Source: Verrucomicrobiia bacterium
GTDB taxonomy: Bacteria; Verrucomicrobiota; Verrucomicrobiia; Limisphaerales; UBA1319
Assembly (NCBI GenBank): GCA_963664225.1
Contig: OY760937.1
Location: 1,056,001-1,120,000 of the forward strand
Reading direction: 5' to 3'
DNA: 64,000 nt
The notes under the pieces are model-generated. The model worked only from the letters and a program-made list of their open reading frames with translations, made no database searches and was not told the origin of the DNA. The position numbers were made by a program, and so were the translations under genes. Numbering within the stretch: the stretch's first letter is position 1; every line of letters begins with the position of its first letter. Shown here in pieces: positions 12,051 through 37,800 of the stretch.

Positions 12051-12082
12051 GAAACGCGGATGACGGCATCCGCGTTTCTTTT
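12051..12082 (+). terminator. Intrinsic terminator-like hairpin
   Basis: GAAACGCGGATG-ACGG-CATCCGCGTTTC (12-bp stem) followed by TTTT, 22 bp after the epimerase stop. Confidence 0.65.
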
Positions 12083-12146
12083 GGCTTGGATCGGCTCCGG
12101 CCATTCACTGTATCCGGTGCTCATCAACCTCCAATATTGACCCGAC

Positions 12147-15350: not shown

Positions 15351-15353
15351 ACC

Positions 15354-16454: not shown

Positions 16455-16551
16455 GTACCGGTTTGCAGGCTTTTGGGATTAAGTTGCGGAATTGGAGGCG
16501 AATTTGCTTCGCTTGGCGGAGTGAATCCCTTACAAAATCGCCCTAAGTATT

Positions 16552-18342: not shown

Positions 18343-18388
18343 GGTTTTCAGCGTTTGAATTGATTTTGCACCGCTCAAGCTCACTTTA

Positions 18389-22033: not shown

Positions 22034-22693
22034 ATGACAGATAAGACGAAAATGAAGCAGCGGACCCGCAAACGGGGTTTTACGCTGGTGGAGATGTTGG
22101 TGGTCATATCGATCATTGGCGTGCTGGCGTCCATGGTTGTGGGTCTGGCCGGCGGGGCGACCAAACAATCACGCATGAAACGCGTGAAATCGGATTTGCA
22201 GAACATCGTCACAGCTATCGATCGTTTCAAGTCCAAGTATGGATCTTACCCGCCGGATAACGGGCGCGTGACGGTCAGCGGTGGGCAGACCAATTACCTG
22301 GCGGTGCCCAATCAGCTTTTTTATGAGTTGGTGGGATCGGTGCACCGGCTGAATGCGGCTGGACAATCGGAGTTTTACGTTCCACAGCTTGGTTTGACCG
22401 CCAAACAAGGCGACATCAAGACGTGGTTTGGAGTGGAAGGATTTGTCAATGCCACTGAGAACATGAAGGATGTGGAGAATTTTCTTCCCAATTTCAAGAC
22501 CAATGACGTGGCCCGGATTCCCATGACCACGCAAACGCCTTTGGTGGGTTTGCGCGTGGCGGTGAAAAATCCGGGGACCAATGAGAATTTCTGGTATTAC
22601 CGCAGCACGAATCCAACAAACAACCCCACCAGCTACGATCTGTGGGCGGTTGTGGTGATTGGCAAAAACACAAACATCATCAGCAACTGGTAG
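22034..22693 (+). CDS. Type IV pilin / GspG-like pseudopilin
   Basis: RKRG|FTLVEMLVVISIIGVLA class III signal; AIDRFKSKYGSYPP; SYDLW. Confidence 0.88.
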   Translation: MTDKTKMKQRTRKRGFTLVEMLVVISIIGVLASMVVGLAGGATKQSRMKRVKSDLQNIVTAIDRFKSKYGSYPPDNGRVTVSGGQTNYLAVPNQLFYELVGSVHRLNAAGQSEFYVPQLGLTAKQGDIKTWFGVEGFVNATENMKDVENFLPNFKTNDVARIPMTTQTPLVGLRVAVKNPGTNENFWYYRSTNPTNNPTSYDLWAVVVIGKNTNIISNW

Positions 22694-22708
22694 AGAAGAG
22701 AGACGACC

Positions 22709-23560
22709 ATGCATTCGCAATTTTCAATTATGAAAAGAAACGCAGACATTCGTTTATATCGTCAGCGAGGTTTCACGCTGATCGAACTTCTGGTGGTCAT
22801 CAGCATCATAGGCATCCTGGCGGGAATGACTTTGCCCGCGGTCGTCGGCGTGCAGAAGAAGGCGAAGATCAAGGTCGCCCAGATTGAGATCAACAACATC
22901 ATGAGCGCGGTGACGGCCTATTACGGGGCGTATAACCGGTATCCCTGCACCAAGGAGGCGCTCGACGCGGTGAGCCAGACGCCCGTGAATTGCCCTGATT
23001 TCACCTTCGGCATTCTCTCCACCATGAGCTATTCGAACAAATTTGGCCGCATTCAGATGGCGATTCAAAACGATTACAACAATGGCGCGGTTTCCTATCA
23101 GGACGACAACCGCGAGGTGATCGCGATATTGCGGGATACCATAACGGTGCAAACGCCGGGATCGGGCGGGGTCATCATTAACGCCAATCATTCGCGCAAT
23201 CCGGAGCGCAATCCGTTCTTGAATGTCAAAGACGTCTCCTCCATTTCGGGGCCGGGTGTCGGGCCGGATGGTGTCTATCGTGATCCCTGGGGTTCACCCT
23301 ATATCATCACGCTGGATTTGAACTATGACAACCAGTGCCGGGATGCGTTTTATCGGAGGGATGCGGTTTCGGCGGACACGGGGGACCGTGGATTCAACGG
23401 GCTGTTTCGCGTGAAGCAGGCGAACAACACGGCGATTGCGAATGGCTTTGAGGCGAAGGCGTCTGTGATGGTGTGGTCGCTGGGACCGGATGGCAAGGCG
23501 GACATGAACCTCAAGGCGGGTGTGGGTGTGAATAAGGATAATGTGTTGGGTTGGAAATAG
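22709..23560 (+). CDS. GspG-like pseudopilin
   Basis: RQRG|FTLIELLVVISIIGILA; DPWGSPY and VWSLGPDGK..DNVLGW C-terminal GspG-like motifs. Confidence 0.88.
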   Translation: MHSQFSIMKRNADIRLYRQRGFTLIELLVVISIIGILAGMTLPAVVGVQKKAKIKVAQIEINNIMSAVTAYYGAYNRYPCTKEALDAVSQTPVNCPDFTFGILSTMSYSNKFGRIQMAIQNDYNNGAVSYQDDNREVIAILRDTITVQTPGSGGVIINANHSRNPERNPFLNVKDVSSISGPGVGPDGVYRDPWGSPYIITLDLNYDNQCRDAFYRRDAVSADTGDRGFNGLFRVKQANNTAIANGFEAKASVMVWSLGPDGKADMNLKAGVGVNKDNVLGWK

Positions 23561-23604
23561 GAGACGCCAGCCAGGCTGGCGGCTCACGTTGGAAAAGTTG
23601 TTAC

Positions 23605-24426
23605 ATGAACACTCAATGGAATCCAGATGACCCGCGCGTGAAGCGGGGAGGGGCGTTCAGCCTGATCGAACTGCTGGTCGTCATGGGGCTCATGGGGATG
23701 CTGGCGGCGATCGGTCTGCCGGCGCTGAAAGGGTTGGGCCAATCCAATGCGATGTCGGCGGCCAATCGGCAATTGCTGGACGATGTCGGTCTGGCGCGCG
23801 CCATGGCGATCAAGAACCGCACGACGGTTTACATGGTGTTTGTGCCGCCGAATCTGGCCGCGTTATTGCCCCGGTTGAGCACTGCGCAGGAGCGCAAGCA
23901 ACTGACGAATTTGAGCGGCGGACAATACGCTGGATATGCCCTGCTGGCCAAGCGAACGGTGGGAGATCAGCCCGGACAGGATCATCCGCGTTATCTCACC
24001 GATTGGCGCAAATTGCCGGAGGGCGTGTTCATCTCGACGAATAAATACGCGCGTTGGGCGCGCAATTCATGGCAGCCGTTTTTGAACACAACCAACCGCC
24101 CATTCGCTTATTACGACCAACCGGCGGGAGACCCCGGGCTTCCATTTCCGACGTCCACCAGCCCCCGATGGCCGCTGCCTTACATCGCTTTCAATTCCGC
24201 GGGGCAACTAACGCGTCCAACACATGATGGCACCCCGTTGAAGGACGAGATCATTCCTTTAACGCGCGGCAGTATTTTTTACGTTCGGGACAATGCGGGC
24301 CAGATCACCTTGGGAACGCCAGATGTTCAGGAAACACCTCCAGGCAACAGCACGAATATGTTCAATTACATTCACATCGACTGGATGACCGGACGGCCCA
24401 GAGTCGAGAAACAGGAGATACGATGA
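23605..24426 (+). CDS. Minor pseudopilin, GspH/FimT-like (Verru_Chthon cassette protein D-like)
   Basis: RGGA|FSLIELLVVMG; LARAMAIKNRTTVYMVF; YIHIDWMTGRPRV. ATG at 23605. Confidence 0.8.
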   Translation: MNTQWNPDDPRVKRGGAFSLIELLVVMGLMGMLAAIGLPALKGLGQSNAMSAANRQLLDDVGLARAMAIKNRTTVYMVFVPPNLAALLPRLSTAQERKQLTNLSGGQYAGYALLAKRTVGDQPGQDHPRYLTDWRKLPEGVFISTNKYARWARNSWQPFLNTTNRPFAYYDQPAGDPGLPFPTSTSPRWPLPYIAFNSAGQLTRPTHDGTPLKDEIIPLTRGSIFYVRDNAGQITLGTPDVQETPPGNSTNMFNYIHIDWMTGRPRVEKQEIR

Positions 24427-25256
24427 ACCTGTTTGTTGCGAGCGGAAAAGCGGGGCTGGATCGGGGTGTGAAGACCGGCATGCGATCTGGCTTGAGCGGG
24501 TGGCTTCGACGGGATTGCCGGGCCTTCACGATGATTGAAATTGCCATGTCCCTGGCGATCGTGGGATTTGCGCTGGTGGCAATCATTGGTGTGCTGCCCA
24601 ATGGCGTTCAAGTCCAGAAGAACAATCGGGACGACACGATCATCAATCAGGAGGGGATGATGATTCTGGAAGCCATTCGCAACGGGACCATGAATTTTGG
24701 CACGTTGACGAACATGGTGGACGATGTGGCGGTTTATTGCACGAACAGCCAGGGGGCACCCAAGTCTTACACGAATATTGTATTGAATTCACCGATGCAG
24801 ATCATGGGTTTGCTGAGCATTCCCGTTGGCGCCGTCTATCAAACGAACAAGTCCGGGCCCTCCATGTATGCCACGCAGGTCGTTGCAAAAGTGCGGGCGA
24901 AAACGGGGGTGATCTCCCAGCAGGGGACCAACAAGGATACCCGGGAATTCGCATTCAGCTTTCTCCTACAGCCGGAAATCCGGCCTTTTACAAACTACGG
25001 ATCGTATATGGCGACCAACCAGACCAATCTCCTGAAGGCGGGATTGAGTTTGTATGAATTGAAATTGGTGCTGAGGTGGCCTGTTTATGGTAAACAAGGG
25101 TCCTGGCGGGCGGGGGCGAACCATCAGGTTTTCCGCACGCTGGTTAATGCCAGTGTGACGAACTTCCTCGCAGCGCCCACCAACAACGGCATCTACTGGT
25201 ATTTCTTCGATCCGTACGACAGCCGGTCAACCAACGTGGCGGGGAGTCAGCAATGA
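24423..25256 (+). CDS. Minor pseudopilin, GspI/PilV-like (Verru_Chthon cassette protein B-like)
   Basis: CRA|FTMIEIAMSLAIVGFALVAIIGVLP. ATGA overlaps on both sides. Confidence 0.8.
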   Translation: MNLFVASGKAGLDRGVKTGMRSGLSGWLRRDCRAFTMIEIAMSLAIVGFALVAIIGVLPNGVQVQKNNRDDTIINQEGMMILEAIRNGTMNFGTLTNMVDDVAVYCTNSQGAPKSYTNIVLNSPMQIMGLLSIPVGAVYQTNKSGPSMYATQVVAKVRAKTGVISQQGTNKDTREFAFSFLLQPEIRPFTNYGSYMATNQTNLLKAGLSLYELKLVLRWPVYGKQGSWRAGANHQVFRTLVNASVTNFLAAPTNNGIYWYFFDPYDSRSTNVAGSQQ

Positions 25257-26203
25257 AGCGTCCTAATACAAAACATCAGTTCAGCGGGATTGGCATTGTG
25301 CTGAGGACCACGCAGGCCTTTTCGCTGCTGGAAATGATGGTGGTAATGTCCATGTTGACGGTGATCGTGCTGGGCTTGTATAGCGTGTTTGACCACACGC
25401 AAAAGGCATTGCGCAGCAATAACGCGCAGGTGGATGTGATGGAAACCGGACGCGCGGCGATGGATCTCCTGTCCAGGGAATTGGAAGGGGCCATGGCCAC
25501 GGGTCAGATTGGGACCAACACCAATTCTTTTCACATGACCAATACGGTGAGTGTTTACAATACCACCACGCACGACGGCTTCACCATGCGACTCAATGAT
25601 GGAACAGTCCGGACCAACGTGCTGGAGGATGTGTTTTTCATGAGTCGGTCCAACAATTGGTGGACGGGATACGGGTATTTTATCGGGGGGGTATCGAACA
25701 ACTTGATCGTGACCAATCTTGTGTGGAAAAGCGGATTGGGAACGCTCTACCGTTCCACGGTGCAGAATAATCCGCCACTGATGCAATTTCACGATGTCAG
25801 CCAGTTCAACGAATTAGTGCAGAAGTTGAACTTTGGCCACTGGTATTTGACAAACTCGTATCAGATCGCGGATGGCGTGGTGCATTTCCGGGTGCGTCCC
25901 CTGGATGCGGAAGGACAAATCATGGTGCCTTTCTATACGAATATATTTGGATTTCGCGCCACCAATTACAACGTGCTGAACGAGCCCAATCCCATTGCGC
26001 GCGAATACCAGATGCGGTTTGCCAGCAATCAACTACCGGCGTTTATCGAATTGGAGTTGGGTTTGCTGCCGCCGCAAGTGTTGCAACGGGTCAGGGCCAT
26101 TGAAAACGCGGATGCGCAGCGAAACTTTTTGACCAATCAAGCCAACGCCGTTGTGCTTTTCAACAAAGTAATACGGCTTCGGAACGCCCAAAATGAACGG
26201 TAA
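25253..26203 (+). CDS. Minor pseudopilin, GspJ/PilW-like (Verru_Chthon cassette protein C-like)
   Basis: TQA|FSLLEMMVVMSML; GRAAMDLLSRELE; IADGVVHF; LPAFIELEL. Confidence 0.8.
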   Translation: MKRPNTKHQFSGIGIVLRTTQAFSLLEMMVVMSMLTVIVLGLYSVFDHTQKALRSNNAQVDVMETGRAAMDLLSRELEGAMATGQIGTNTNSFHMTNTVSVYNTTTHDGFTMRLNDGTVRTNVLEDVFFMSRSNNWWTGYGYFIGGVSNNLIVTNLVWKSGLGTLYRSTVQNNPPLMQFHDVSQFNELVQKLNFGHWYLTNSYQIADGVVHFRVRPLDAEGQIMVPFYTNIFGFRATNYNVLNEPNPIAREYQMRFASNQLPAFIELELGLLPPQVLQRVRAIENADAQRNFLTNQANAVVLFNKVIRLRNAQNER

Positions 26204-29200
26204 ATTGAATTTGAGCCAGGCAGTCCCCACGATGCCCGCTGGGATCGCGAAAAGCGGATGGAAGGGGATGAGGGAAACCCATGCCTCACGCGGTGTGGCG
26301 CTGGTCGTCACGCTGATCATGCTTTCGGTGGTGACCTTCATGGCCGTCACCTTCCTGGCGCTGAGCCGGCGCGAGAGAGCGTCGGTGGCGGTGACCGTGG
26401 ATCAAACGACGGCAAATTTGATGGCGGACGCCGCGCTGGCCCGGGTGCAGGCCGAGGCGGTGTCAAGAATCATGGCACGGACCAATATGAGCGCTTATGA
26501 GTTCATGGTCTCCACGAATTTCATCAATCCGCGCGGGTTCATTCCGAACAACTTCACTCCCACCAATGTGGCCTTCAGGGAAAGCTCCGGCGCGCCTCTC
26601 ACGCCTAATGATATGCGGGTCGTTCTCAAGAACCTGCTGTTCGATCCGCGCGCACCGGTTTTTGTGGTGACACAGGCGAATACCCGGCCGGATTTTCGCT
26701 ACTATCTTGATTTGAACCGGAACGGGACCAATGAAGCCAATGGATCGCTGCCTGTATATGGGAGCGACGGCAAATACCTGGGATACAGTAATGTATTTGT
26801 AGGCGATCCCGAGTGGATCGGGGTGCTTGAATACCCCAACCTGCCGCATTCGGCCACAAACCGGTTCATCGGCCGGTATGCCTTCATGGCGCTGCCCATG
26901 GGCAAGAGTCTGGACCTGAATTTCATGTATAATCAGGCCAAACAGATCCGCCCGGCATGGGATGGTTACATGCGCAACCAGGGCGTGGGTTCCTGGGAGC
27001 TGAACCTGGCGGCGTTTCTGACTGATCTGAATCCGAACTTCTGGCCCAGCAACGGACCGGCGGGGAATCCCAATTATTTTTATAATACCAATTTTGGGGC
27101 CGCCAGCAGCGGGGCCGGTTTTTCCAACGCGCTGACCATTCTGCAATACCGTTACCGGACCAATTACAACAATCTGGCGAGTATCCAGACTTTGTATGGG
27201 ACGGCCGGAGCGAACGCCATCCACACGAATCAGGTGGATGATTATTCGGATGGGCCTTACATGACGTCCACCCTGGCGTTGACCAACGAGCCAAATTCGC
27301 TCAATCAACCTGGCCGGCCTGGAACAGATGATCCGATGCTTCCATGGTCTGGCAGCGATGCGCCGCAGATGTATTACGATGTGCAGGAGTTGTTCGATGG
27401 GAACAAGACTTCGGCGGATTTCACCAATCGTTTGTTGAGCGGTTCAATGGCAGGACCGGGGCGATCCACCATGGATCGTTACACTTTTTACAGAATGGTC
27501 AGTCAGTTGGGGGTGGATTCAGATCTGAATTTGGGAAAAATCAATCTCAACTACGATAATTACAATCCGCTGACGAAGACGTTTGGCGAGGCGACGAACT
27601 TCTTGAACTGGAGGGGGAGCAATTTCTTTAATCTGGCGGCGGACCGGATGATAAAACAAGAAGCGCGGCTTTTTCAAAATTTCCCCAATTCCATCACAAA
27701 TATCTGCGTGTATCCACCAGCCAATAATCAATACACGCCTGCGGTGCATCGGCTATTGCAGTTGGCCGCCAATATTTATTGCACTGCCGGAGCCACGAAC
27801 GAGCTGTCCTCCATTCCCAATACACCCGCGCTGCCCGCGGTGTTTCGTCCGATATTCAGGGTGAATAATGGACGGGTGTTCATTAACGGGTATGTCGAAG
27901 AGCGAGGCACCAATTTCATTGCCAACCGTTGGTATGACTTGAACGTGCCAAACCCGGCTCCGGCGCTGGCGCTATTGAGCGCAAACTCAGCGAACGCCAA
28001 CATCTATGGAGTTCCCCTTGTGATCGGCGTGAAGAAGGGATATCCGAATTTCAATGAATGTGCGATGCGCACAGTGATGGAAGTGACCCGGAAGATCGAT
28101 GTCTCGAGGCCGACGACCTTCGCGCGGCCTAATTCGACCAATGTGATGTTTATTCTGGGGGTGTCGAACATCTTCGCCGTTGAGACATGGAATTCCTACA
28201 GCAAGGCGTTTCAGCGTCCGTTGGAAATTCGCGTGACCAATTCGGTGTTCATGTATCTGACCAATAACGCCGGATGGGGTTATAACCACGGGCCGGGATT
28301 CCAAGCTGTGCTGAGGACGAATTTCTATAGAGGCAACTGGTTCAGCAACCAGTTCCTGGTCATCACCAATACGGCAATCTCCAACTCCATTTTCCTGAGC
28401 AACTCGATCGTCAATGGGAGTTTGCTGCGACCCCTCAATCCGGCCTTTTTCGTGCCACCCGCAGTATTGACGAATGTGATCAATCCCTCCAACCACATCT
28501 GGATGGTTGCCACCAATCGGATGCAATATATGGCGATCGACCGTTCTTCGGGGAGGGTGATCGATTTTGTGAATCTGGACAACCTGGCGGTGCAAGTGGA
28601 CATCACGGGGTTATTGCTTGGCAATGCGAATATGCAGGAAACCAATGATTCGGTTTCCAGGCTGGTATGGAATGCAAAGGACGGCATCACCAATCAAATC
28701 CAAATATCCCTTGGAAATACCAAAGTGGATGAAACGTCCTGGAGCAGCGCTTCCAAGAATGCGATCACCGGCGATGACAAGAATAAGAGCATCGATCGAT
28801 TTAGGGTATTTGTTGGATTGGACCCGGTGATCTATAAGAAAGTCGATTTGCAGCAGGAACTCCGGCAGACCCTGACGATGCAGGCGCCATTAACTCCCAG
28901 TCGGCGGGTGGCCTACACGGTCTCATTGCAGGCCAACGATCCCCTGGTGCATTACACGCTTGGCGATCTCTATGACCAGATGATCACCAACCAGGTTGAC
29001 ACCATCAAACCCACCGGCGGGCCGCTGCCGGCGAACAACATCGGTTTTCGCAATCGCAGGTACCAACCATGGGGTGGCAATCCGGATGTGTCCGGGGATA
29101 CCAATAAGTTCAATCTTGCCATAAAGGATCCCATGGTGAAGACCTCGGACGATTGGGATTTTCCGACGAACAAATTCCCGAGCATTGGATGGCTGGGCCG

Positions 29201-29945
29201 GGTGCATCGCGGAACGCCCTGGCAGACGGCGTATTTGAAATCCGAGGTGGCCGAGACCAACGCCTGGAGGTTGTGGTCCGGGCATTATTTCACGCATCCA
29301 ACCAACGACTGGAGTTTGCTCGAGTTGTTCACTACCGCTGTGTCGGCAAATGCTTCGCGGGGCCTTCTCTCAGTCAACCAGACCAACCTGGCCGCCTGGT
29401 CGGCGGTGTTGAGCGGGGTCATGGTGATGTCGAACACCAGTCCAAACGCAAATCCGCCCAACAATGTCAGCGTGGCGATCATTCAGCCCAACTCGCGCGA
29501 ATTGCAGACCATCGTGGAGGGCATCAACCGGACGCGAAGTTCGATGTCGAACGGCGTATTCAACCATCTGGGCGAGTTTCTCGCGACACCTGAACTCTCC
29601 TTTAATTCGAGGTCCGGGCGAATCTCCCCATACTTGACGAATATTTTAAGTCTGTATTACAGACAACCTGAGAGCGTCAAGGTGTCCGACCAGGTTTTTG
29701 AACGCATCCCGGAGATGATTTTGGGTCTCGTGCGTGAGGATCATCCGGGGTACGTGGTCTATACTTATGGGCAGGCGCTGGTTCCGGCGCCCCAATCCCT
29801 CGTCCTGTCCGGACCGGATCGCGGGTTGTGCACGAACTATACGGTGGTGAGCGAGTCCGCCTCCAAGCATGTGATGCGCATCGATGGGACGGCCACCAAA
29901 CCGGTCGTGGTGCCGGAACGGTTCCAATACATACCCAATGACTGA
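26193..29945 (+). CDS. Giant GspK/PilX-like minor pilin (Verru_Chthon cassette protein A-like), 1250 aa
   Basis: SRG|VALVVTLIMLSVVTFMAVTFL (no Glu5, typical of K/PilX); GKINLN, GLLSVNQT, FNHLGEFL, YVVYTYGQAL GspK-like motifs. Confidence 0.78.
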   Translation: MNGKLNLSQAVPTMPAGIAKSGWKGMRETHASRGVALVVTLIMLSVVTFMAVTFLALSRRERASVAVTVDQTTANLMADAALARVQAEAVSRIMARTNMSAYEFMVSTNFINPRGFIPNNFTPTNVAFRESSGAPLTPNDMRVVLKNLLFDPRAPVFVVTQANTRPDFRYYLDLNRNGTNEANGSLPVYGSDGKYLGYSNVFVGDPEWIGVLEYPNLPHSATNRFIGRYAFMALPMGKSLDLNFMYNQAKQIRPAWDGYMRNQGVGSWELNLAAFLTDLNPNFWPSNGPAGNPNYFYNTNFGAASSGAGFSNALTILQYRYRTNYNNLASIQTLYGTAGANAIHTNQVDDYSDGPYMTSTLALTNEPNSLNQPGRPGTDDPMLPWSGSDAPQMYYDVQELFDGNKTSADFTNRLLSGSMAGPGRSTMDRYTFYRMVSQLGVDSDLNLGKINLNYDNYNPLTKTFGEATNFLNWRGSNFFNLAADRMIKQEARLFQNFPNSITNICVYPPANNQYTPAVHRLLQLAANIYCTAGATNELSSIPNTPALPAVFRPIFRVNNGRVFINGYVEERGTNFIANRWYDLNVPNPAPALALLSANSANANIYGVPLVIGVKKGYPNFNECAMRTVMEVTRKIDVSRPTTFARPNSTNVMFILGVSNIFAVETWNSYSKAFQRPLEIRVTNSVFMYLTNNAGWGYNHGPGFQAVLRTNFYRGNWFSNQFLVITNTAISNSIFLSNSIVNGSLLRPLNPAFFVPPAVLTNVINPSNHIWMVATNRMQYMAIDRSSGRVIDFVNLDNLAVQVDITGLLLGNANMQETNDSVSRLVWNAKDGITNQIQISLGNTKVDETSWSSASKNAITGDDKNKSIDRFRVFVGLDPVIYKKVDLQQELRQTLTMQAPLTPSRRVAYTVSLQANDPLVHYTLGDLYDQMITNQVDTIKPTGGPLPANNIGFRNRRYQPWGGNPDVSGDTNKFNLAIKDPMVKTSDDWDFPTNKFPSIGWLGRVHRGTPWQTAYLKSEVAETNAWRLWSGHYFTHPTNDWSLLELFTTAVSANASRGLLSVNQTNLAAWSAVLSGVMVMSNTSPNANPPNNVSVAIIQPNSRELQTIVEGINRTRSSMSNGVFNHLGEFLATPELSFNSRSGRISPYLTNILSLYYRQPESVKVSDQVFERIPEMILGLVREDHPGYVVYTYGQALVPAPQSLVLSGPDRGLCTNYTVVSESASKHVMRIDGTATKPVVVPERFQYIPND

Positions 29946-30087
29946 GCCATCCCGTGCAGAGGGCAAGAGTGTAGTGAAGACGGGATAAACGGGATGGAAA
30001 TGGCGGAGAGGGGTTGAGTCGCGGCCGATGCGACAGGGGCCTTTTGAATAATTTTGTCAAAGCATTGAATTTTAGAAGAATCTGGTT

Positions 30088-33000
30088 ATGCGTATAAAAA
30101 CTCGCACTTGGTGTCTGATCAGCTTGCTGCTGTTCGTTGCTGCCGGTGTCTGCTGGTGGTTGGGCAATCTTCAGCAGGACCGCCATGCGGCTGCCTCGTC
30201 GAATGCGGCGGCGACCAATACCCCCGCGACGGTGACCACCGCATCGAACGCCACGCCGGCAATCGCGTTGCTGACCGGAAGCGGCACGAATGCAACCTCC
30301 CGTAACAGCGCGGAATCCCGCGCGGGCCGGTTGACCAACACCACCAAAAAATTGTCGGAACTTACACGGACCGAAACTGCGATCTTATTGCGCAACGCGT
30401 TCCTGGATACCGCCGAAACTGGCGTGCCCCAAATTCCCGAGTCGCTGCGCAGTCAGGGTGATCCCGGAAGTTACATCGTGCAGAGCCGGGGAGCGATCAA
30501 CGACGCGTTCCGTGCGGAATTGCAAACGGCTCATGCCTCGATTGTTTCGTACATTCCAAACAATGCCTATCTGGTGGAAGCCGATCCGTCCGCAGCCCGG
30601 GCGTTGACGGGCGCGGCCGGTGTCAGCGCCGTGCTGCCGTTCGAACCATATTACAAACTTGATCCCAAGCTCCTTGCGCTGGTTCTGGAGAATCAGGCTA
30701 TGAGCGATGATGCGCGGTTGCAGGTGACTTTGCTGCCCAATGGCGCAGAGGCGGGGAAGCTGGCCCTGGAGGGACTCGGCATCAAGATACTCAGCGAGAC
30801 GCGCACACCATTCGGGCCATCGGTGACGGTGCAGCCCAAGGCGGACAGCCTGGTGGCGATAGCCCAACTCAAGCAGGTGCAAGGCGTGGAGCCAGTCTAT
30901 CACCGCGTGCTGGCCAACGATATTACACGCTATGTGGCGGCGGTTTCCGAAAGTTCCACCAATGCCACCAACTACCTCGGGTTGACCGGCACGAATGTAT
31001 TGGTGAATGTGAACGACTCGGGCATCGATGCCACGCATCCGGATTTGAAGGATCGGGTGTTTTCAGTCAATCCGGCGTATTTGACCGATCCGGATGGCCA
31101 CGGCACGCATGTGGCGGGAATCATCGCGAGCAGCGGGAGCAAGTCGAGCACGGTGACCAACGCGATTGGATCGGTGACGAACGCGGACTTTCGCGGGATG
31201 GCCCCGGGCGCAGAGCTTTTTATCCTGCCTGTGGATATTCTGACCGGGCCGATCAGTTCCGATGTTTACCTTCTGGAAACTGCGGCCAGCACCAACGCCT
31301 TTATCTCCAATAACAGTTGGGTCTATGACGGATCCACAGAGTATGATATTTCGGCGTCAAGTTATGACGCGGCGGTGCGTGACGCGTTGCCTGGGAAGTC
31401 AGGGGAGCAACCGCTTCTGATTGTTTTTGCGGCGGGCAATCATGGCGGTGGCGCCGTGGATGGCACCGGTGGCGAACCCGATACCATTCGGTCTCCGGCC
31501 ACGGCGAAAAATGTGATCACGGTTGGCGCATTGGATCATTTCCGCAACATCACCAATGAGGCCTGGATGCCCGATGAATTTGGAAACAAGGTCACCAACG
31601 CATGGTTCCTGGGGGATACGGACAGCGACGACCAGGTGGCCTCTTATTCGAGCCGGGGCAATGTGGGCGTGGGAACGGAAGGGGATAATGGACGGTTCAA
31701 GCCTGACGTGATCGCGCCGGGTTCCTATCTGGTTTCAACGCGCGCGACGGGCTGGCTGATGGATACCAATCCACCCAAAGCCATCAATAACCAATTTTTC
31801 AATCAGGAAAGCGTTCCTGGCTTGCTGAATGACTATTCCATATATGTCCCGGACACCGCCTCGCGACTGATATTGCAAGTAACCCCATCGTTTGGGTTTT
31901 CCAATGCGTTTCCGGGCCTGCCCATCTACGTGCGGCACGGGGATTTTCCCGATGCGAATACGTATGACGTGGTGGGCACCAACCAGGTGGAATTGCCCCG
32001 GGATTTTCCGATTTCGGCCGGGGATTGGTTTTACTCGGTGGGCAATAACAGCGGGGAATTTGTGCAATTTGACGTTCAGACATCCATCATTGTTTCCAAT
32101 GCCTACGGGAATTACTACCAGGTGCTCAAGCAAATCAACGATGACTGCGGGCCCTACTACCGTTACGAGACCGGCACCAGCATGTCGGCGCCGGTGGTGT
32201 CTGGAATCCTGGCGTTGATGAAGGAGTTTTTCGAGCAAAAGCTGCCTGCGGACAAGCGTATGACCAACAGCCCGGCCCTGATGAAGGCGCTGATCATCAA
32301 TGGCGCGCATTCGGTGAGCGGGCGTTATGATCTCTCGCCAAACAAAACTCGCAATATCGAGGGTTGGGGCATTGTGGATCTGACCAACAGCATTCCGATG
32401 GCCTTAACCAACGGCGTTACCACCAACGGACCTTTGGTGCTGGTGGAGCAGAGCGTGACGAACGCCCTGGCCACGACGCAAAGCAAGACCTGGGCGGTTG
32501 GTGTTTCGTCCGATGCCACTAATTCAGGCCTGAAGTTCACGCTTGTGTGGACCGATCCCCCAGGAAATCCGAATGCCTCTTCCAAACTGGTCAACGATCT
32601 GGACCTGGTGGTGACTAATCTGGACACGGGGGACGTGTATGTGGGCAACGACATTCCTGAGCAGAGCGATTATAACACCGTTCAAACCACAAACAGCGTT
32701 TCCCGATTCGATTTGGTGAACAATGTGGAGAATGTATTCATCCGCGAGGCCAGGGGCACCAACTACAGCGTGACCGTTCTGGGACGACGTGTGAATGTAA
32801 ACGCGGTGACGGCCAATACCAACCTTGTGGTGCAGGATTATGCGCTGGTGATCTCCTGCGGCGACCTGACACTGACCAACGGCCTTGGATTGACGGCCCT
32901 GGCGCCGGTGAGTTCCGTCGCAACCACGAACGCGCTGGTCACGCGCCCGACGAGGGAAATAACCAATGGCGTGGCGTTGATGAACGAGAGGGTGGGCGCC

Positions 33001-36000
33001 AACTCGGCCTTGGCCTCGACAAACCGTGTCCTCCCCCTGGCGGCCACGAACGGCACGGCTGTGCAGTGGAATTTTTACGTGTTTACCAATTCCATTTCGA
33101 CCAATAACCCAACAGGTCTCACCAATGGTCCCAACGTGGCTTTCATTACTTTCCAACCGCCGAACCTGTCCAATTCGAGGTTGTTGGATGCGGATATCGA
33201 CCTGTATGTTTCCACTAATCCGGCGTTGACCAATCTGGATCCGCTGGTGATTTCCGCGGCGGACAAGTCCACAAGTCGCGGAGGGACGGAACTGGTGTTT
33301 TATACCAACGCGCCCTTAGGCCGGGTTTACTACATCGGCGTGAAATCCGAAGACCAAAAGGCGGCGGAGTACGGGTTCATAGGATTGTCGAGCCAGGTGC
33401 CGTTTTCGCAGAACATCAATGGGAGCATGCTGATGCAGGTCTTTCCACTATTTCAGGTTATTCCCGATGGCGCGGCTGACCGGCCGGGCCGCACGAATGC
33501 CTTTGCGATCGGGACCTTCCCGCTGAAGGTCGGCAGGGTGGTGGTGACCAATGTGATCACCCATCAGGATTTGGGAGACATAGTGGAAACCCTCAGCCAT
33601 AACCAAAGCTATGTGACACTGTTCAACCACAATTTGAACAACACAAATTTTGCGGGGACGAATATGATGTTTGTCTTCGATGACAGCAATGGCGGAGGCA
33701 TTCCATTCAGTCGGCCCTCGGACGGCCCGGGTTCCCTGTTGGACTTTAAAAATCAGCAGGCGTTGGGTGTTTGGATGCTGAACATGACTGATAACGGACT
33801 GACGCACACCGGACGCGTTGAGAGTTGTTCGATCTGGATCGATCCGTTCCCGGCCTTGACCGGTCTGGCCGGCCGTGTCGAACCCAGAACCTGGCAGTAT
33901 TATGGAATTACAGTTCCGCCCGAGGCCACTAACTTGACGGTGACCGTTTGGGATCTCAACCCGGCGCTGCCCTTGGATGTGTATGTGCGCGGCGGAGATT
34001 ATCCGGGCGCCAATGTTTACGACAAGCATGTGCGCGTGGATCCGAACCTGCCGTTCGACCCCACCAAGCCGACGCTGCAATTGGGGTTGGGCGACTCGCC
34101 GCCCTTGGTTCCCGGGCAGTTCTATTACATCGGGGTGTATAATCCCAATAATGTGGCGATCGATTTCCGGATCGATGCGAGCCTTCAGTATGATTTGTCA
34201 GGCGGCTTGGCGCAGACCTTCATTTCCCAAGATACGCCGATGCCGATTCTGGACGATGCGTTGACGATTTCGAGCAACTTTGTGTCGCTCAACCGGCAGA
34301 TCATCGATGTGCGCGTCGGTTTGCGCATCGACCATCCCCGACTCTCGGATTTGTCCATTCATCTGGTAAGTCCGCAAGGCACGCGCGTGTTGCTGGATGA
34401 AAACCGCGGACAGCAAGCGGGGACGCAATTTGGTTATACCATCGGCACGAACATCAATTACGCGACTTTTGCTGAGCTGACGAATTATCCATCGACGCCG
34501 ATCAAATTCGCGCAGCCACAATTCACCAACAGCATCATCGGTCCGATCATCTATCAACAGGACTTTGAGACAGTGGCGCCGGGGAGCTACCCAACGGGAC
34601 CACGGTTCGATAACTGGCTGGTCATTGGCAATCCGGTGACGGTGTTGACCGATCCGGTGCTGGCCAATTCAGGAACGAATCTGTTGGAAATGTCGGGAAG
34701 CCGAATCCGGCGGGTGCTTCCGACACAGGCAGGCACAGATTACGAATTAACCTTTGCCTACCGGAAATATCCGTCGCTGGACGGCCTGATTGGTTGGTGG
34801 CCCGGTGAAGGCAACGGCAGTGATGTTTTCGGGCGTCAAAACGCATTGCTCACCAACGGGGTCATCTTCGAGAATGCCGTGGTCGGGCAGGGTATGAGGT
34901 TTAACGGCGTCCGCAATTACGGGGTTCTTACAGGGGATCCTGCGGCTTTGGCCGTTCCCCATTACACGGTTGAGGCCTGGGTAAAACCGCTGACCCAAGT
35001 GAATAATTTTCAGGGTCAGTCGCTTGTTTTTGGTCAGGCGTTTGGCCGGGCCCAATTGGTTTTGCGGCCGGGCACCACGGGCGTAAAAGTGGCCTGGCAA
35101 TTTGCCGACTCGCGCTTCAGCGTGGTGAGTGTGGAAAGCACCCGTGAAATTCCGATCAACCAGTTCACCCATCTGGCGGGAACCTGGGATGGATCGAATT
35201 TGCGGATTTATATCAACGGCGTGCTTGATGCCACGCTGGCCACTCCCAGCGCTCCCCGGTTGTCCACGGCGGGATTTTATATTGGCGGATTTAATTCGCG
35301 CGGCGCAGAGGGACTGGCGATCGGCCAGTACTTGAACGGAACGATCGACGAGATCGGTTATTTCAATGTTGCGCTTGACGCCACCAACATTGCCGCGATT
35401 TACGCAACGGGTTCGCAAGGGAAATGCTCAATGCAGGTTTCTCCGGAACCTTGCAAAGCGACTGTGAATGTCTCGCTGGCCGGGGTTGGTACCAATGATA
35501 TTTTTGGCGATTCGACATGGCAGGTGTTCAAGTTGCCATTCAAAGCGCCTGCCAACAATATCGCGATCAATCTGCAAAACACTCTGGGGAACATGCTGAT
35601 TGAGGATGTTGTCCTGCGCGAGAAGGGGCGGATCTATCAGGCGGAGGAGTCCCTGGAAGCGTTCAAGGACGAGCCCAGTCAGGGCAACTGGCGGTTGGAG
35701 GTTGAGGACTCCCGCGTGGGACCAGGGGTGGGTGCGCTGCCCGTGGCATCAATAGTGAGCTGGGAACTGCAATTCATCTTTGCGTCCCCATCGATCAGTG
35801 TCGTCACATTGACCAACGCCGTTGCCTATACCAACGTTGTCGTTGGCGGCGACACGAAGTATTTCAAGATTGTTGTGCCGCTCTCGGCGCATTTCGCCAC
35901 GAATACGCTCACTGGCACGGGTGACTTGATCCTGATCGGAAACCGGGCGGGGCTGCCCACGGGGGATTCGTTGCTCGACGATTATTATGTCGATAACCGG

Positions 36001-37800
36001 GGTGTGAATGGCGGCGAATATCTTTTGTTGAGCACAGGCAGTCCGCTGAACGCTCCCTTGCAACCCGGCGGTGTGTATTACCTCGGGGTGAGGAATAAGG
36101 ATCCGAGGCAGAACAACACCTTCAGCATACGCGTGGATTTCGACCAGGTCGATCAGCCCGCGAATGTCATCACGCTAACGAGCGGCGTTCCCATCACCCG
36201 TTCGGTGAACCAGGGAAACCTCCCGGATTATTTTCGGTTCACCGTGACCGCGCTGGCCTACGAGGCCACATTCGATCTCTTCCCGAGCAACGGCGATGTC
36301 AATCTGGTTTTGCGCAAGGGAGGGCCTGAGGTCGATCCGCTTCCGACGCTGACGCGCTATGATTATGCCAGCACGCAACCGGGCACCACGCCCGACCAGG
36401 TGGTGGTCACAACCAATTCGTTCCCGGTCAAATTGAGTCCCGGTGTCTGGTATCTGGCGGTGTATAATGCGGATACCAATACTGTGGACTATACCATCCG
36501 CGCGACGGAGTTCCTGAACATCGTCACCAACGTGGTGCAGCTGACAAATAATGCACCGCTCAATGCGCAGCAGACCTTTGGTCCCTATCTGACCAATTTC
36601 TACCGTTTGAGCATTACGGAGACCAATCCAAGCTTCCGTCTCGATCTGTATAATCTGACTGGGAACGGGAATCTGGTGTTGCGCCGGGGACAGTATCCGA
36701 CCAGCAATCTTTTCGATGCATCGAGCATCAATCTCGGGACCAATTCCGAGACCATCGTGGTGACCACCAATGCGTTGGCGCCCGATCTCAATGGGGACTG
36801 GTATGTTGCGGTGCTCAATCGGGAAACCAACGCGGTGGACTTCACCTTGCGGGCCATTGTTGCTCCGCAAGTAACACCCCTGGCCGATACTGTGGGGATC
36901 ACTGATGTGGTCAAGGCGGGGCCGGGCTGGCATTATTACTCCTTTAATGTAAGCACGGACGCTGTGGCGGCCTCGTTCGAATTGCTGCCACAGAATGGCG
37001 ATGTCGGTTTGTATGTGCTTAACTCGACCAATATCCTTTATCCCTGGCCGACGCTGACGAGCTACAATTACCGCAGCGACCAGTCGGGAACAAATCGGGA
37101 GTTGATCACGGTATCGACCAATTCAATCCCGAAAGCACTGACTGGAGGGACTTGGTTTGTCGGCGTGTATAATCCCGGCACGAACGCTGTGATTTATCAG
37201 ATCATGGCCACCGAGCTGCGTCCTTCGGTTACGCCGATCATCACACTGTTCAACAATGTGATTGTGAATCGTCCGGCGTTGACCAACGGCAATGTCGCGT
37301 ATTTCCAATTCCAGGTCAGCGTCCAGGCGACGCAGGCGATTTTTGAGACGTTCTTTGCCACTGGAAATATGAGCCTCTATGCGCGGCAAGGTCTGCCTTT
37401 GCCCACACCTGTTAATGCGCATTTCAGCAGCACGAATGCCGGCGCGGCGGATGAGATGATCCGGGTTTACACGAATTCGCAGCCTGTGGCGTTGAGTCCG
37501 GGCTGGTGGTTCCTGACGGTCAGCAACAGTGATGTAAGTCCTCAGAAATATTCGATTCGCGCGGTGGAATTGTCAGCGACCCCGCTGGCGATCCGTCCGC
37601 AATTGAGTTTCAGTCCCTCGACGGTGTGCCTGACTTGGAGTTCGTTGATCGGCGAAAGTTATTCGATTCAGGGTAAGGCCAAAATCACCGATCCGATCTG
37701 GATTCCGCTCGCGCCGACACAGGTGGCCAGCAATCAATTGACCACGATCTGTCTGCCGACTCCGGCCACGAACCAATACTTCTTCTGGGTGCATCCGTGA
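30088..37800 (+). CDS. Giant S8 subtilase with PPC-like repeats, two proprotein-convertase P-domains and a LamG domain
   Basis: Catalytic motifs VNDSGID, DGHGTHVAGII, FAAGN, GTSMSAP; TLVWTDPPG..NDLDL; HPRLSDLSIHLVSPQG; FTHLAGTWDG..IYING..GTIDE; repeated LSPGxWY/FLxVYN modules; N-terminal signal/anchor. Confidence 0.9.
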   Translation: MRIKTRTWCLISLLLFVAAGVCWWLGNLQQDRHAAASSNAAATNTPATVTTASNATPAIALLTGSGTNATSRNSAESRAGRLTNTTKKLSELTRTETAILLRNAFLDTAETGVPQIPESLRSQGDPGSYIVQSRGAINDAFRAELQTAHASIVSYIPNNAYLVEADPSAARALTGAAGVSAVLPFEPYYKLDPKLLALVLENQAMSDDARLQVTLLPNGAEAGKLALEGLGIKILSETRTPFGPSVTVQPKADSLVAIAQLKQVQGVEPVYHRVLANDITRYVAAVSESSTNATNYLGLTGTNVLVNVNDSGIDATHPDLKDRVFSVNPAYLTDPDGHGTHVAGIIASSGSKSSTVTNAIGSVTNADFRGMAPGAELFILPVDILTGPISSDVYLLETAASTNAFISNNSWVYDGSTEYDISASSYDAAVRDALPGKSGEQPLLIVFAAGNHGGGAVDGTGGEPDTIRSPATAKNVITVGALDHFRNITNEAWMPDEFGNKVTNAWFLGDTDSDDQVASYSSRGNVGVGTEGDNGRFKPDVIAPGSYLVSTRATGWLMDTNPPKAINNQFFNQESVPGLLNDYSIYVPDTASRLILQVTPSFGFSNAFPGLPIYVRHGDFPDANTYDVVGTNQVELPRDFPISAGDWFYSVGNNSGEFVQFDVQTSIIVSNAYGNYYQVLKQINDDCGPYYRYETGTSMSAPVVSGILALMKEFFEQKLPADKRMTNSPALMKALIINGAHSVSGRYDLSPNKTRNIEGWGIVDLTNSIPMALTNGVTTNGPLVLVEQSVTNALATTQSKTWAVGVSSDATNSGLKFTLVWTDPPGNPNASSKLVNDLDLVVTNLDTGDVYVGNDIPEQSDYNTVQTTNSVSRFDLVNNVENVFIREARGTNYSVTVLGRRVNVNAVTANTNLVVQDYALVISCGDLTLTNGLGLTALAPVSSVATTNALVTRPTREITNGVALMNERVGANSALASTNRVLPLAATNGTAVQWNFYVFTNSISTNNPTGLTNGPNVAFITFQPPNLSNSRLLDADIDLYVSTNPALTNLDPLVISAADKSTSRGGTELVFYTNAPLGRVYYIGVKSEDQKAAEYGFIGLSSQVPFSQNINGSMLMQVFPLFQVIPDGAADRPGRTNAFAIGTFPLKVGRVVVTNVITHQDLGDIVETLSHNQSYVTLFNHNLNNTNFAGTNMMFVFDDSNGGGIPFSRPSDGPGSLLDFKNQQALGVWMLNMTDNGLTHTGRVESCSIWIDPFPALTGLAGRVEPRTWQYYGITVPPEATNLTVTVWDLNPALPLDVYVRGGDYPGANVYDKHVRVDPNLPFDPTKPTLQLGLGDSPPLVPGQFYYIGVYNPNNVAIDFRIDASLQYDLSGGLAQTFISQDTPMPILDDALTISSNFVSLNRQIIDVRVGLRIDHPRLSDLSIHLVSPQGTRVLLDENRGQQAGTQFGYTIGTNINYATFAELTNYPSTPIKFAQPQFTNSIIGPIIYQQDFETVAPGSYPTGPRFDNWLVIGNPVTVLTDPVLANSGTNLLEMSGSRIRRVLPTQAGTDYELTFAYRKYPSLDGLIGWWPGEGNGSDVFGRQNALLTNGVIFENAVVGQGMRFNGVRNYGVLTGDPAALAVPHYTVEAWVKPLTQVNNFQGQSLVFGQAFGRAQLVLRPGTTGVKVAWQFADSRFSVVSVESTREIPINQFTHLAGTWDGSNLRIYINGVLDATLATPSAPRLSTAGFYIGGFNSRGAEGLAIGQYLNGTIDEIGYFNVALDATNIAAIYATGSQGKCSMQVSPEPCKATVNVSLAGVGTNDIFGDSTWQVFKLPFKAPANNIAINLQNTLGNMLIEDVVLREKGRIYQAEESLEAFKDEPSQGNWRLEVEDSRVGPGVGALPVASIVSWELQFIFASPSISVVTLTNAVAYTNVVVGGDTKYFKIVVPLSAHFATNTLTGTGDLILIGNRAGLPTGDSLLDDYYVDNRGVNGGEYLLLSTGSPLNAPLQPGGVYYLGVRNKDPRQNNTFSIRVDFDQVDQPANVITLTSGVPITRSVNQGNLPDYFRFTVTALAYEATFDLFPSNGDVNLVLRKGGPEVDPLPTLTRYDYASTQPGTTPDQVVVTTNSFPVKLSPGVWYLAVYNADTNTVDYTIRATEFLNIVTNVVQLTNNAPLNAQQTFGPYLTNFYRLSITETNPSFRLDLYNLTGNGNLVLRRGQYPTSNLFDASSINLGTNSETIVVTTNALAPDLNGDWYVAVLNRETNAVDFTLRAIVAPQVTPLADTVGITDVVKAGPGWHYYSFNVSTDAVAASFELLPQNGDVGLYVLNSTNILYPWPTLTSYNYRSDQSGTNRELITVSTNSIPKALTGGTWFVGVYNPGTNAVIYQIMATELRPSVTPIITLFNNVIVNRPALTNGNVAYFQFQVSVQATQAIFETFFATGNMSLYARQGLPLPTPVNAHFSSTNAGAADEMIRVYTNSQPVALSPGWWFLTVSNSDVSPQKYSIRAVELSATPLAIRPQLSFSPSTVCLTWSSLIGESYSIQGKAKITDPIWIPLAPTQVASNQLTTICLPTPATNQYFFWVHP

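Follow-up and report, generated by a model that had tools for sequence, protein, structure and literature searches.

A prepilin-type gene cluster with a giant subtilase

We analysed a 64,000-nucleotide stretch of DNA from a Verrucomicrobiia bacterium (contig OY760937.1, positions 1,056,001 to 1,120,000; G+C content 54-59%), the whole of which is referred to here as the window. Positions 22034-37800 hold a co-directional cluster of seven genes, namely five prepilin-type open reading frames (ORFs), the gene of a 1250-amino-acid (aa) protein and that of a 2570-aa subtilase, and the subject of this study is the over-representation of the dipeptide Thr-Asn (TN) in the proteins that they and related genes encode (Table 1). 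The prepilin cleavage/methylation motif (Pfam N_methyl) was matched by all five ORFs in 22034-26203; four matches had E values of 6.6e-10 to 1.9e-4, at or above the cut-off of 21.2 bits, and the match in the 277-aa protein (E 5.9e-4) lay under it. The GspG-like pilin matched TIGR01710 (2e-17), again under the family cut-off.

The 1250-aa protein matched no Pfam family and had a language-model Atlas feature score of 0.97 to the cluster "Verru_Chthon cassette protein A family". Membership of the Verru_Chthon cassette was not supported by NCBIfam, where all scores lay far under the cut-offs (protein A, 17.3 bits, cut-off 332.3; C, 28.8, cut-off 256.5; D, 21.8, cut-off 70). A preliminary description of this DNA had called several of the proteins I-, J- and K-like pilins; we could not confirm these labels, since the searches gave no more than the prepilin motif at the N-terminus and weak matches under threshold, such as that of the 316-aa pilin to cassette protein C. 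The locus resembles the Verru_Chthon cassette (TIGR02596-TIGR02600) in that several proteins of prepilin type precede one of about 1300 aa, and in the weak N-terminal matches of its proteins to cassette proteins A, C and D. It differs in the 2570-aa subtilase that comes after these genes, which is not known to be part of the cassette. The cluster looks like a Verru_Chthon-cassette-like pseudopilus, which may display or secrete the protease. In an alignment of 25 sequences, subtilase residues D310, H338-G339-T340, N451 and S698 were invariant columns, and we take D310, H338, N451 and S698 to be the catalytic triad and the oxyanion residue by comparison with subtilisin.

Table 1. Features of the window and of related loci (numbers beginning with L), with counts of TN and of the reversed dipeptide NT; expected values are for TN.
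Feature	Position	Strand	Remarks
Prepilin-type protein, 219 aa	22034..22693	+	Pfam N_methyl E 2.8e-9; TN 6, NT 1, expected 1.7
GspG-like major pseudopilin, 283 aa	22709..23560	+	Pfam N_methyl and T2SSG; TN 0, NT 1
Prepilin-type protein, 291 aa	23551..24426	+	N_methyl E 1.6e-4; TN 4, NT 2, expected 1.2
Prepilin-type protein, 277 aa	24423..25256	+	N_methyl 19.8 bits; TN 11, NT 0, expected 1.6
Prepilin-type protein, 316 aa	25253..26203	+	N_methyl; TN 9, NT 4, expected 2.5
Verru_Chthon cassette protein A-like, 1250 aa	26193..29945	+	by feature score; TN 31, NT 6, expected 9.0
Subtilase, 2570 aa	30088..37800	+	Peptidase_S8, P_proprotein, Laminin_G_3, PPC; TN 66, NT 10, expected 18.1
Conserved N-terminal domain of the subtilase, residues 96-285	30373..30945	+	without TN; probable pro-domain, by position only
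ABC_transp_aux (GldG-like) protein, 504 aa	57204..58718	+	outside the cluster; TN 3, NT 0, expected 0.9
DUF4340 protein, 614 aa	58781..60625	+	outside the cluster; TN 10, NT 1, expected 2.4
AsmA-like protein, 1074 aa	60634..63858	+	outside the cluster; TN 9, NT 6, expected 3.0; moderate excess
Sugar-nucleotide/polysaccharide cluster	7244-18937		GT2, flippase-like ORF, AraC regulator (-), epimerase, Fkp-type fucokinase/GDP-fucose pyrophosphorylase
Sugar cluster, further genes	7244-18937		mannose-1-phosphate guanylyltransferase, phosphomannomutase-like protein, NUDIX protein
TPR protein (YbgF/BamD-like, NCBIfam)	L026:12118-14829
TPR protein (YbgF/BamD-like, NCBIfam)	L064:10809-13484
TPR protein (YbgF/BamD-like, NCBIfam)	L030:18007-20727
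TPR protein (YbgF/BamD-like, NCBIfam)	L009:21107-23770
TPR protein (YbgF/BamD-like, NCBIfam)	L071:21354-24110

Thr-Asn is in excess and order-specific

TN and NT were counted in all 38 long ORFs of the window, and each protein was compared with 2000 shuffles preserving its composition. The manual counts of the preliminary description for the five TN-rich proteins proved nearly exact on recount (66, 31, 11, 9 and 10). In the seven cluster ORFs taken together (5206 aa), 127 TN stand against 35.2 expected (z 15.5), and EL, with a z of 3.6, comes second among the 400 dipeptides. No enrichment was found for NT (24 against 35.2), SN (31 against 30.8), TD (13 against 20.6) or TQ (13 against 16.9), so that the excess depends on the order of the two residues, as had been proposed. 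Of the broader signal "[T/S]-N" proposed at the same time, the Thr part holds and the Ser part does not, with observed/expected ratios (O/E) for SN of 0.94-1.08. The other 28 window ORFs (12,578 aa) contain 30 TN against 23.2 expected (O/E 1.29), and the cytoplasmic proteins named earlier as lacking the excess indeed lack it, with one TN in AlaRS, one in Fkp and none in HtpG.

The shuffled subtilase held 18.1 +/- 3.9 TN and at most 33, and the shuffled 1250-aa protein 8.9 +/- 2.8; in neither case did any of the 2000 shuffles reach the observed number, nor did any for the 277-aa pilin and the DUF4340 protein. The observed count was reached in one shuffle for the 316-aa pilin, three for the AsmA-like protein and four for the 219-aa pilin; the weakest case is the 291-aa pilin, with 45. 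The excess thus survives the correction for composition under which, according to the preliminary description, it might have disappeared, and the observation is confirmed as real and stronger than first stated.

An artefact of composition, internal repeats, a DNA word, codon-pair bias or mis-called ORFs is excluded. Amino-acid composition is rejected as a cause by the shuffles. In ten window ORFs, TN is written with all eight possible hexamers (ACCAAT 49, ACCAAC 44, ACGAAT 22, ACGAAC 17, ACAAAC 7, ACAAAT 6, ACTAAT 3, ACTAAC 1), and ACNAAY occurs 149 times in frame against 2-19 times in each of the five other frames, which rejects a DNA word. The Thr codon of TN is ACC in 62% of cases against 33% elsewhere, a difference that would suit a codon effect. 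However, in homologues of the cluster genes from related loci, before codons starting with AA (Asn, Lys) a third-position C is favoured and T strongly avoided in the six four-fold families tested. Because Ala, Gly, Val, Pro and Ser codons share the shift, the frequent use of ACC follows from a general NNC-before-AA junction bias, which may reflect avoidance of off-frame TAA, and a codon choice specific to TN is rejected. Repeats can raise a dipeptide, as in the repeat-rich E. coli proteins YeeJ and Ag43, where TL and NG reach O/E 2.3-2.4. Yet no tandem repeats were found in 22034-37800, the N-terminal segment of the prepilins is the sole true direct repeat, and each TN site has its own distinct sequence context. 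Moreover, the bias is common to five unrelated families and hundreds of homologues. The earlier statement that TN acts at the level of the protein, and is not a DNA repeat, is thereby upheld.

Protein families carrying the bias

A scan of species-representative genomes yielded 80 related loci (L001-L080), nearly all with record titles, our source of taxon labels, that read Verrucomicrobia, Verrucomicrobiota, subdivision 3, Limisphaerales or Pedosphaera. With a simple longest-ORF rule, these loci gave 1053 ORFs of 80 aa or more; 354 of them match proteins of the window cluster, and synteny is therefore conserved. The TN excess holds across the subdivision 3 relatives in five families. The pilin homologues gave 93 TN against 46.0 expected for the 219-aa protein (41 ORFs, O/E 2.02), 140 against 48.1 for the 291-aa protein (49 ORFs, 2.91), 200 against 54.9 for the 277-aa protein (38 ORFs, 3.64) and 263 against 65.9 for the 316-aa protein (50 ORFs, 3.99), the 1250-aa family 1734 against 487.2 (70 ORFs, 3.56) and the protease 2933 against 815.8 (61 ORFs, 3.60). 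The 45 homologues of the GspG-like pilin contain 30 TN against 55.7 (O/E 0.54) and 23 NT, and this pilin is an internal negative within the cluster. In the cultured Limisphaera sp. VF-2 (L046), the protease homologue has 47 TN against 10.4 and a 1320-aa protein 30 against 6.4. The relatives with the bias are titled Verrucomicrobiota, subdivision 3, Limisphaerales, Pedosphaera or Limisphaera only.

Database homologues gave the same picture. Among the best 120 of 967 protease homologues, every sequence is TN-rich (O/E 1.92-5.41, median 3.61), and those with source names come from Verrucomicrobiota, Limisphaerales or Pedosphaera. The best 150 DUF4340 representatives, down to 29% identity, are likewise all TN-rich (pooled O/E 5.0-5.5, none at or below 1.3), and 120 homologues of YkuD L,D-transpeptidases contain 497 TN against 142.9 expected.

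Five records bearing other titles, Akkermansia muciniphila, Bifidobacteriaceae or Bifidobacterium (L014, L016, L057, L065, L070), also carry this cluster with the TN bias, and one sequence named Candidatus Paceibacterota (P0010) is a protease with the bias; these records are probably mislabelled or mis-binned metagenome assemblies.

Locus ORFs of at least 150 aa outside the cluster were split by the presence of a signal-like N-terminus. The 298 signal-less ORFs contain 152 TN against 132.4 (O/E 1.15); this class holds spurious Arg-rich ORFs, and filtering leaves the result unchanged (1.15-1.24 under stricter length and composition filters). Membrane-protein ORFs have an O/E of 1.25 and the 98 signal-bearing ORFs one of 2.45 (221 against 90.2), within which ten ORFs are individually enriched, with 133 against 23.6 when pooled. 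Among the exported proteins poor in TN are DegP-like, BamB-like, BNR, cytochrome, astacin and Kelch proteins, and the four Tat-signal ORFs, too few for a powered comparison, have 2 TN against 3.3. The excess had been described as confined to exported proteins; its absence from the cytoplasmic class stands, whereas exported proteins as a whole class do not share it, only 10 of 98 being enriched. The richest proteins of all are signal-bearing TPR proteins of about 900 aa encoded directly downstream of the protease in some relatives, five of which have 15-19 TN against 1.9-2.5 (O/E about 8). In a similar place in the window (38845-41574) lies the gene of a 909-aa protein without a family and without the excess (TN 3, NT 4).

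An extended motif of four positions

Residues flanking TN were scored at 7678 sites and then separately in the minor pilins, the 1250-aa family, the protease and DUF4340. In these four unrelated families Pro directly after Asn (position 3) falls to 0.19-0.43 of background, while NP is otherwise over-represented (1.55 in ORFs without signal). At position 4, Lys and Arg are at 0.08-0.15 and Asp and Glu at 0.20-0.48 of background, and Val, Ile, Leu, Met, Phe and Cys at 1.58-1.77; at this second residue after Asn, Ser stands at 0.66 and Thr at 1.05. None of 148 window TN sites has Lys or Arg at position 4, and all ten sites of the window DUF4340 protein fit T-N-{not P}-{uncharged}. We write the motif as T-N-x-Phi, that is Thr, Asn, any residue but Pro, and an uncharged, usually hydrophobic residue. 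In the homologues (271,192 aa) the O/E is 3.53 for TN, 0.94 for SN, 0.79 for NT, 0.85 for TD and 0.63 for TQ, and the gapped pairs T-x-N and T-xx-N occur at chance (0.84-1.0). Two TN spaced by 2, 3 or 4 residues are found at 0.07, 0.19 and 0.33 of random expectation. In TN-rich families 27-31% of Asn are preceded by Thr, against 3-5% in the GspG-like and signal-less sets.

The sites are both conserved and subject to turnover. A protease homologue 53% identical to that of the window retains 45 of the 66 TN, against 32% of all dipeptides, and Thr is kept in 47 of the 66 TN against 68 of 167 other Thr. At the same 66 sites, Asn and Thr are kept in 50 and 47, 52 and 47, and 42 and 33 cases in three homologues. 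Across 25 protease homologues we counted 654 TN column pairs, one of which is present in all 25 and 370 in a single sequence, the latter number being inflated by alignment error in variable regions. In alignment cells that retain Asn but not Thr, the residue most often found instead is Ser (195 cells), yet SN is not enriched overall.

Lys makes up 1.5-2.2% of residues in TN-rich families; the two TN-poor pilin families reach 4.4-4.8% and other ORFs 3.1-4.1%. Lys is also depleted at most positions flanking TN. Kexin-like (P-domain) proteases cut after basic residues, and the Lys poverty of TN-rich families may relate to such enzymes.

Placement of Thr-Asn within proteins

The mature regions of the protease family in 25 homologues each have a TN O/E of 2.8-3.9, the S8, P-domain, LamG and PPC regions being alike (3.2-3.9). 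Residues 96-285, a conserved domain between the signal anchor and the catalytic domain, contain 2 TN against 7.3 expected, or 0.04 per 100 aa against 1.7-3.1 in all other regions, and the window protease has no TN from residue 84 to 290. This domain, for which no Pfam or PDB match was found, is by its position probably a pro-domain; it matches weakly (E 0.032) a stretch of another subtilase that Pfam calls Fervidolysin_NPro-like.

In an AlphaFold2 model of the 277-aa pilin (mean predicted local distance difference test score, pLDDT, 80.9), the 11 TN are spread over a short helix that precedes a strand, the ends of strands and the residues just past them, loops, a single strand and a helix of low confidence. 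With 38 homologues mapped on the model, 55 TN fall in coil, 68 in helix, 52 in strand and 29 in insertions; a single conserved LTN site supplies 34 of those in helix. The all-alpha TPR proteins carry TN both in inter-helix loops and inside helices. Canonical TPR repeats have Y-P-x-S in inter-helix loops; in the L026 protein itself Y-P-x-S was seen once. Linker-like segments, which we defined by our own heuristic as PSTAG-rich and hydrophobic-poor (15,917 aa) and which are likely disordered, contain 322 TN against 84.7 (O/E 3.8), 73 NT, and 80 SN against 74.0. A single local structural motif, such as one type of turn or cap, does not account for these positions, as TN occurs in coil, helix, strand, TPR helices and loops, and linkers. 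At conserved TN columns, distant DUF4340 members have KD, SD, DG, EG, KN or SG, typical surface-turn pairs. A Foldseek search of the pilin model against the PDB gave no match at E <= 0.001, and in sequence searches of the PDB the 1250-aa protein had no match and DUF4340 matched only a designed repeat protein.

The Ser/Thr/Pro/Ala-rich N-terminal linker of one YkuD protein (L067:27396-28742, identical to P0301) has six TN within 100 residues, each followed by L, V, P or T and then by P or A, and resembles a mucin-like modified linker.

Controls outside the lineage

Twelve distant DUF4340 members (20-26% identity), the only named one being from Candidatus Acidiferrum, have 8 TN against 8.7 expected, compared with 154 against 30.9 in 18 near relatives. 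Solved Bacillus and archaeal subtilases have other residues where the window protease has TN. The E. coli beta-rich adhesins YeeJ and Ag43, of similar Thr and Asn content, lie under expectation (YeeJ, TN 11 against 19.7 and NT 13; Ag43, TN 4 against 8.3), and exported ORFs of Parabacteroides distasonis have 102 TN against 112.7 and 105 NT; in this 200-kb control, whose signal-bearing ORFs total 34,579 aa, no dipeptide exceeds a z of 4.9. A plasmid collection searched for records of the Planctomycetes-Verrucomicrobia-Chlamydiae (PVC) group yielded none, the matches being Streptomyces, Azospirillum, Bacteroidota and Acidobacteriota. The proposed lineage-specificity is borne out by these controls. 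Because the excess outlasts composition correction and is not common to beta-rich secreted proteins outside PVC, neither of these two outcomes, which had been named in advance as speaking against it, was found.

Surroundings of the cluster

A glutamine amidotransferase gene (20437-21078) lies upstream of the cluster, followed by a gap of 955 nt. On the minus strand, a DDE_5 transposase gene (49939-51516) stands between the AlaRS gene and that of an extracytoplasmic function (ECF) sigma factor, and positions 3200-5929 encode a protein of 909 aa that has haem-binding-like motifs, a hydrazine-synthase-alpha-like domain in its middle and no excess of TN (3 against 2.5). PADLOC reported generic subtilase models only, and the Rfam and tRNA scans of the window were empty. 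Promoter-like sites numbered 12 against 11.9 expected, that is chance, and terminator-like sites 29 against 20.9 +/- 4.3 in shuffles.

Known acceptor motifs and transferase candidates

The N-x-S/T motif used by PglB, AglB and STT3-type enzymes is rejected, as it is at chance in the protease (26 against 30.7 +/- 4.8 in shuffles) and the 1250-aa protein (16 against 17.4), in agreement with the earlier statement that TN is not this sequon. The acceptor motif of Bacteroidota, D-(S/T)-(A/I/L/V/M/T), is rejected likewise, being at or under chance in the protease (7 against 9.4), the 1250-aa protein (2 against 3.1), the cluster homologues (661 against 873.5) and the exported locus ORFs (O/E 0.76-0.81), and the enriched T-N unit has no acidic residue.

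The sugar-nucleotide cluster at 7244-18937 includes an ORF (7939-9465) for a flippase-like protein of about 11 helices without a family match, whose true start probably lies downstream of the overlap. For the suggestion that the GT2, flippase and GDP-sugar genes of this cluster feed a modification at TN, no link was found. In the related loci, the recurring upstream neighbour of the cluster is a T2SSF platform gene, represented by 12 of the 35 scanned membrane ORFs. One protein that might lead to the hypothetical transferase is a 1003-aa membrane protein (L054:25132-28143), in which a TMEM260-like O-mannosyltransferase domain (PF11028, 5.3e-8) is fused to TPR repeats and which is itself TN-rich (10 against 3.1).

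A candidate sequon and its alternatives

In our reading, a single Verrucomicrobiota lineage (subdivision 3, the relatives of Limisphaera and Pedosphaera) has selected the motif T-N-x-Phi in many of its exported proteins. The strict specificity for order and residues, the four-position motif in unrelated folds and in disordered linkers, the restriction to exported proteins of one lineage, the combination of conservation with turnover, and the bare regions where a bulky adduct would be harmful all point to a reader of sequence rather than of fold. We therefore favour, tentatively, the view that T-N-x-Phi is a recognition motif at the level of sequence, most likely a sequon for covalent modification outside the cytoplasm; this sequon-like reading fits best because four positions are constrained in every structural context, linkers included. 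Enrichment, specificity, extended motif, conservation and turnover, restriction to compartment and lineage, and independence of fold are observations; the existence of an attached group, its target residue, the enzyme responsible and the purpose served are what we infer from them. By analogy with the Bacteroidota motif and with Thr-preferring GT-C transferases that read a sequon, our best guess is that the Thr of TN may be O-glycosylated. A membrane-bound transferase facing the periplasm would use a lipid-linked sugar to O-glycosylate Thr, reading Asn and the next two positions. Densely occupied sites would then coat those parts of secreted and envelope proteins that are mature and long-lived and could, speculatively, protect them against the many giant subtilases of the lineage, while parts that pack tightly (the major pseudopilin) or are to be removed (the pro-like domain of the protease) would stay bare. 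In its full form, the proposal is that subdivision 3 has an independent, general protein glycosylation, the second to be driven by a motif, with a Thr-Asn-x-hydrophobic sequon that, in contrast to every known bacterial sequon, stands at about 3.5 times chance and would take up roughly a quarter to a third of Thr and Asn in many envelope and secreted proteins, the coat shielding them from the cell's own subtilases and the destructible pro-like domain remaining bare; this whole we regard as possible but doubtful.

Several points weigh against a sequon. Most exported proteins have no excess, the 88 other signal-bearing ORFs outside the cluster pooling to O/E 1.32, and even large secreted astacin-like (TN 17 against 11) and Kelch (8 against 5.5) proteins are unenriched. 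The strict exclusion of Ser is unusual for O-glycosylation, and a hydrophobic position 4, together with several TN at strand ends in one predicted model, would also fit a local structural role. No Wzy_C/PglL, STT3/PglB or PMT protein was found by Pfam and NCBIfam among the 38 window ORFs, and no oligosaccharyltransferase in 35 of the 42 membrane ORFs beside the cluster in the 80 related loci; the TMEM260-like gene is a single chance neighbour in one of these loci and has no counterpart in the window. In Parabacteroides exported ORFs the sequon known from that phylum is itself unenriched (D[ST][AILVMT], 98 against 92.5), so that a 3.5-fold excess of TN needs the added assumption of strong selection for many sites. 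Our literature searches, which covered listings and abstracts, returned no Thr-Asn motif and no glycoproteome for Verrucomicrobiota. Finally, the ORF calling and the signal-peptide rule are crude, and the homologue counts are not phylogenetically independent, so pooled z values overstate independence.

Alternatively, nothing may be attached, and TN might be the uncharged strand end, helix cap or surface turn favoured by this lineage in proteins that fold without cytoplasmic chaperones. The turn pairs KD, SD, DG, EG and KN at conserved TN columns of distant DUF4340 members, four of the 11 TN of the pilin model at or just after strand ends, a hydrophobic position 4 as expected of the next buried residue, the avoidance of very close TN pairs and the low Lys content of TN-rich families (1.5-2.2% against 3.1-4.8% elsewhere) are all consistent with this. 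It nevertheless leaves unexplained why order matters in this lineage only, TN and NT being about equal in YeeJ and in Parabacteroides, and it sits poorly with TN in all secondary-structure classes, in all-alpha TPR proteins and in likely disordered linkers, and with the failure of Ser, Asp and Gln to stand in for its residues. On balance we consider it unlikely.

The motif could also be read without covalent change, by a lineage-specific periplasmic chaperone, secretion or quality-control factor binding T-N-x-Phi in unfolded or exposed segments of its clients (the chaperone SurA, for instance, prefers aromatic-x-aromatic). Four constrained positions with a sharp exclusion of Lys and Arg, the restriction to exported proteins of which only a subset is rich, and the absence from the pro-like domain and the major pilin would suit such a factor. 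Copy numbers of at least 60 per protein, however, the strong conservation of single sites in folded domains and their position in surface turns and linkers go beyond what targeting or a holdase should require, and no candidate binding protein was seen, which makes this explanation quite improbable. That Asn rather than Thr is modified, by an N-linked sugar or some other change of the amide, the sequon then being a non-canonical one that has Thr at -1, we would give a still smaller chance. In the three homologues compared, TN sites retain Asn slightly more often than Thr, Pro is disfavoured directly after it, as in N-x-S/T, and more than a quarter of the Asn in TN-rich families (27-31%) follow Thr; on the other hand, N-x-S/T is unenriched in the protease, no STT3/PglB-type protein was found in the window, and we know of no oligosaccharyltransferase that reads position -1.

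Were T-N-x-Phi a true sequon, it would define only the second motif-driven general O-glycosylation system in bacteria, going by a 2025 review that names the Bacteroidota system as the sole exception so far (PMC12871550), and the first such system found by sequence statistics alone. Genomes could then be used directly to predict the glycoproteome of a soil and freshwater lineage that is abundant but poorly cultured, the TN bias could serve as a phylogenetic profile in the search for the transferase, and a short portable tag for glyco-engineering would be at hand. If nothing is attached, one ordered dipeptide still holds 27-31% of the Asn in whole families, in one compartment of one lineage, which would suggest that some novel constraint acts on how proteins fold, are exported or survive extracellularly. 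Whichever reading applies, the bias is a practical marker separating exported from cytoplasmic proteins in this lineage, and it flags misnamed Verrucomicrobiota records, as in the 5 of 80 loci titled Bifidobacterium, Bifidobacteriaceae or Akkermansia muciniphila.

Comparison with known systems

Among systems that use Asn, N-x-S/T glycosylation (D/E-x-N-x-S/T for bacterial PglB) shares with the motif described here the presence of Asn, the disfavouring of Pro at the next position and the restriction to exported proteins. It differs in that Thr here stands directly before Asn and the second residue after Asn is hydrophobic rather than Ser or Thr, and no STT3-family protein was found among the ORFs of the window.

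GT-C O-mannosylation (bacterial PMT/GT39, eukaryotic TMTC and TMEM260) and the proposed modification would both act outside the cytoplasm, and TMEM260 is reported to be a Thr-preferring GT-C transferase that reads a sequon (bioRxiv 10.64898/2026.09.21.753134). Genes for GDP-mannose synthesis are present in the window, and a TMEM260-like protein with TPR repeats in L054. However, the TMEM260 sequon given there, P-x6-P-x3-P-x2-G-G-x3-T, is unrelated and confined to one domain type, actinobacterial PMT is described as having no consensus motif, and no gene of this kind was found among the window ORFs or recurs among the membrane ORFs scanned beside the cluster. A further system is the S-layer protein of the planctomycete Kuenenia stuttgartiensis, a PVC relative, which is O-glycosylated with a proposed motif G-T/S-X (PMC5088730; bioRxiv 10.1101/2020.12.03.409086). 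Heavy O-glycosylation of a surface protein and a short proposed motif are the features in common; the motif itself is another one, concerns one protein and accepts Ser, and the accessible parts of these reports mention no proteome-wide enrichment. A 2025 review of bacterial O-glycoproteomics does not mention Verrucomicrobia, Akkermansia or Planctomycetes in its available text (PMC12645811).

Another parallel is the general O-glycosylation of Bacteroidota at D-(S/T)-hydrophobic, which is presented as the only known motif-driven O-glycosylation in bacteria, with a transferase still undiscovered (PMC12871550). By that account, both systems have a short linear motif, found in non-cytoplasmic proteins only and throughout a lineage, with a hydrophobic residue after the hydroxy amino acid. 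The motif of subdivision 3 is non-acidic and admits Thr only, and TN is over-represented about 3.5-fold, whereas the D[ST] motif is not so in Parabacteroides. Modification is proven for Bacteroidota, and the putative sequon T-N-x-Phi is known from sequence alone.

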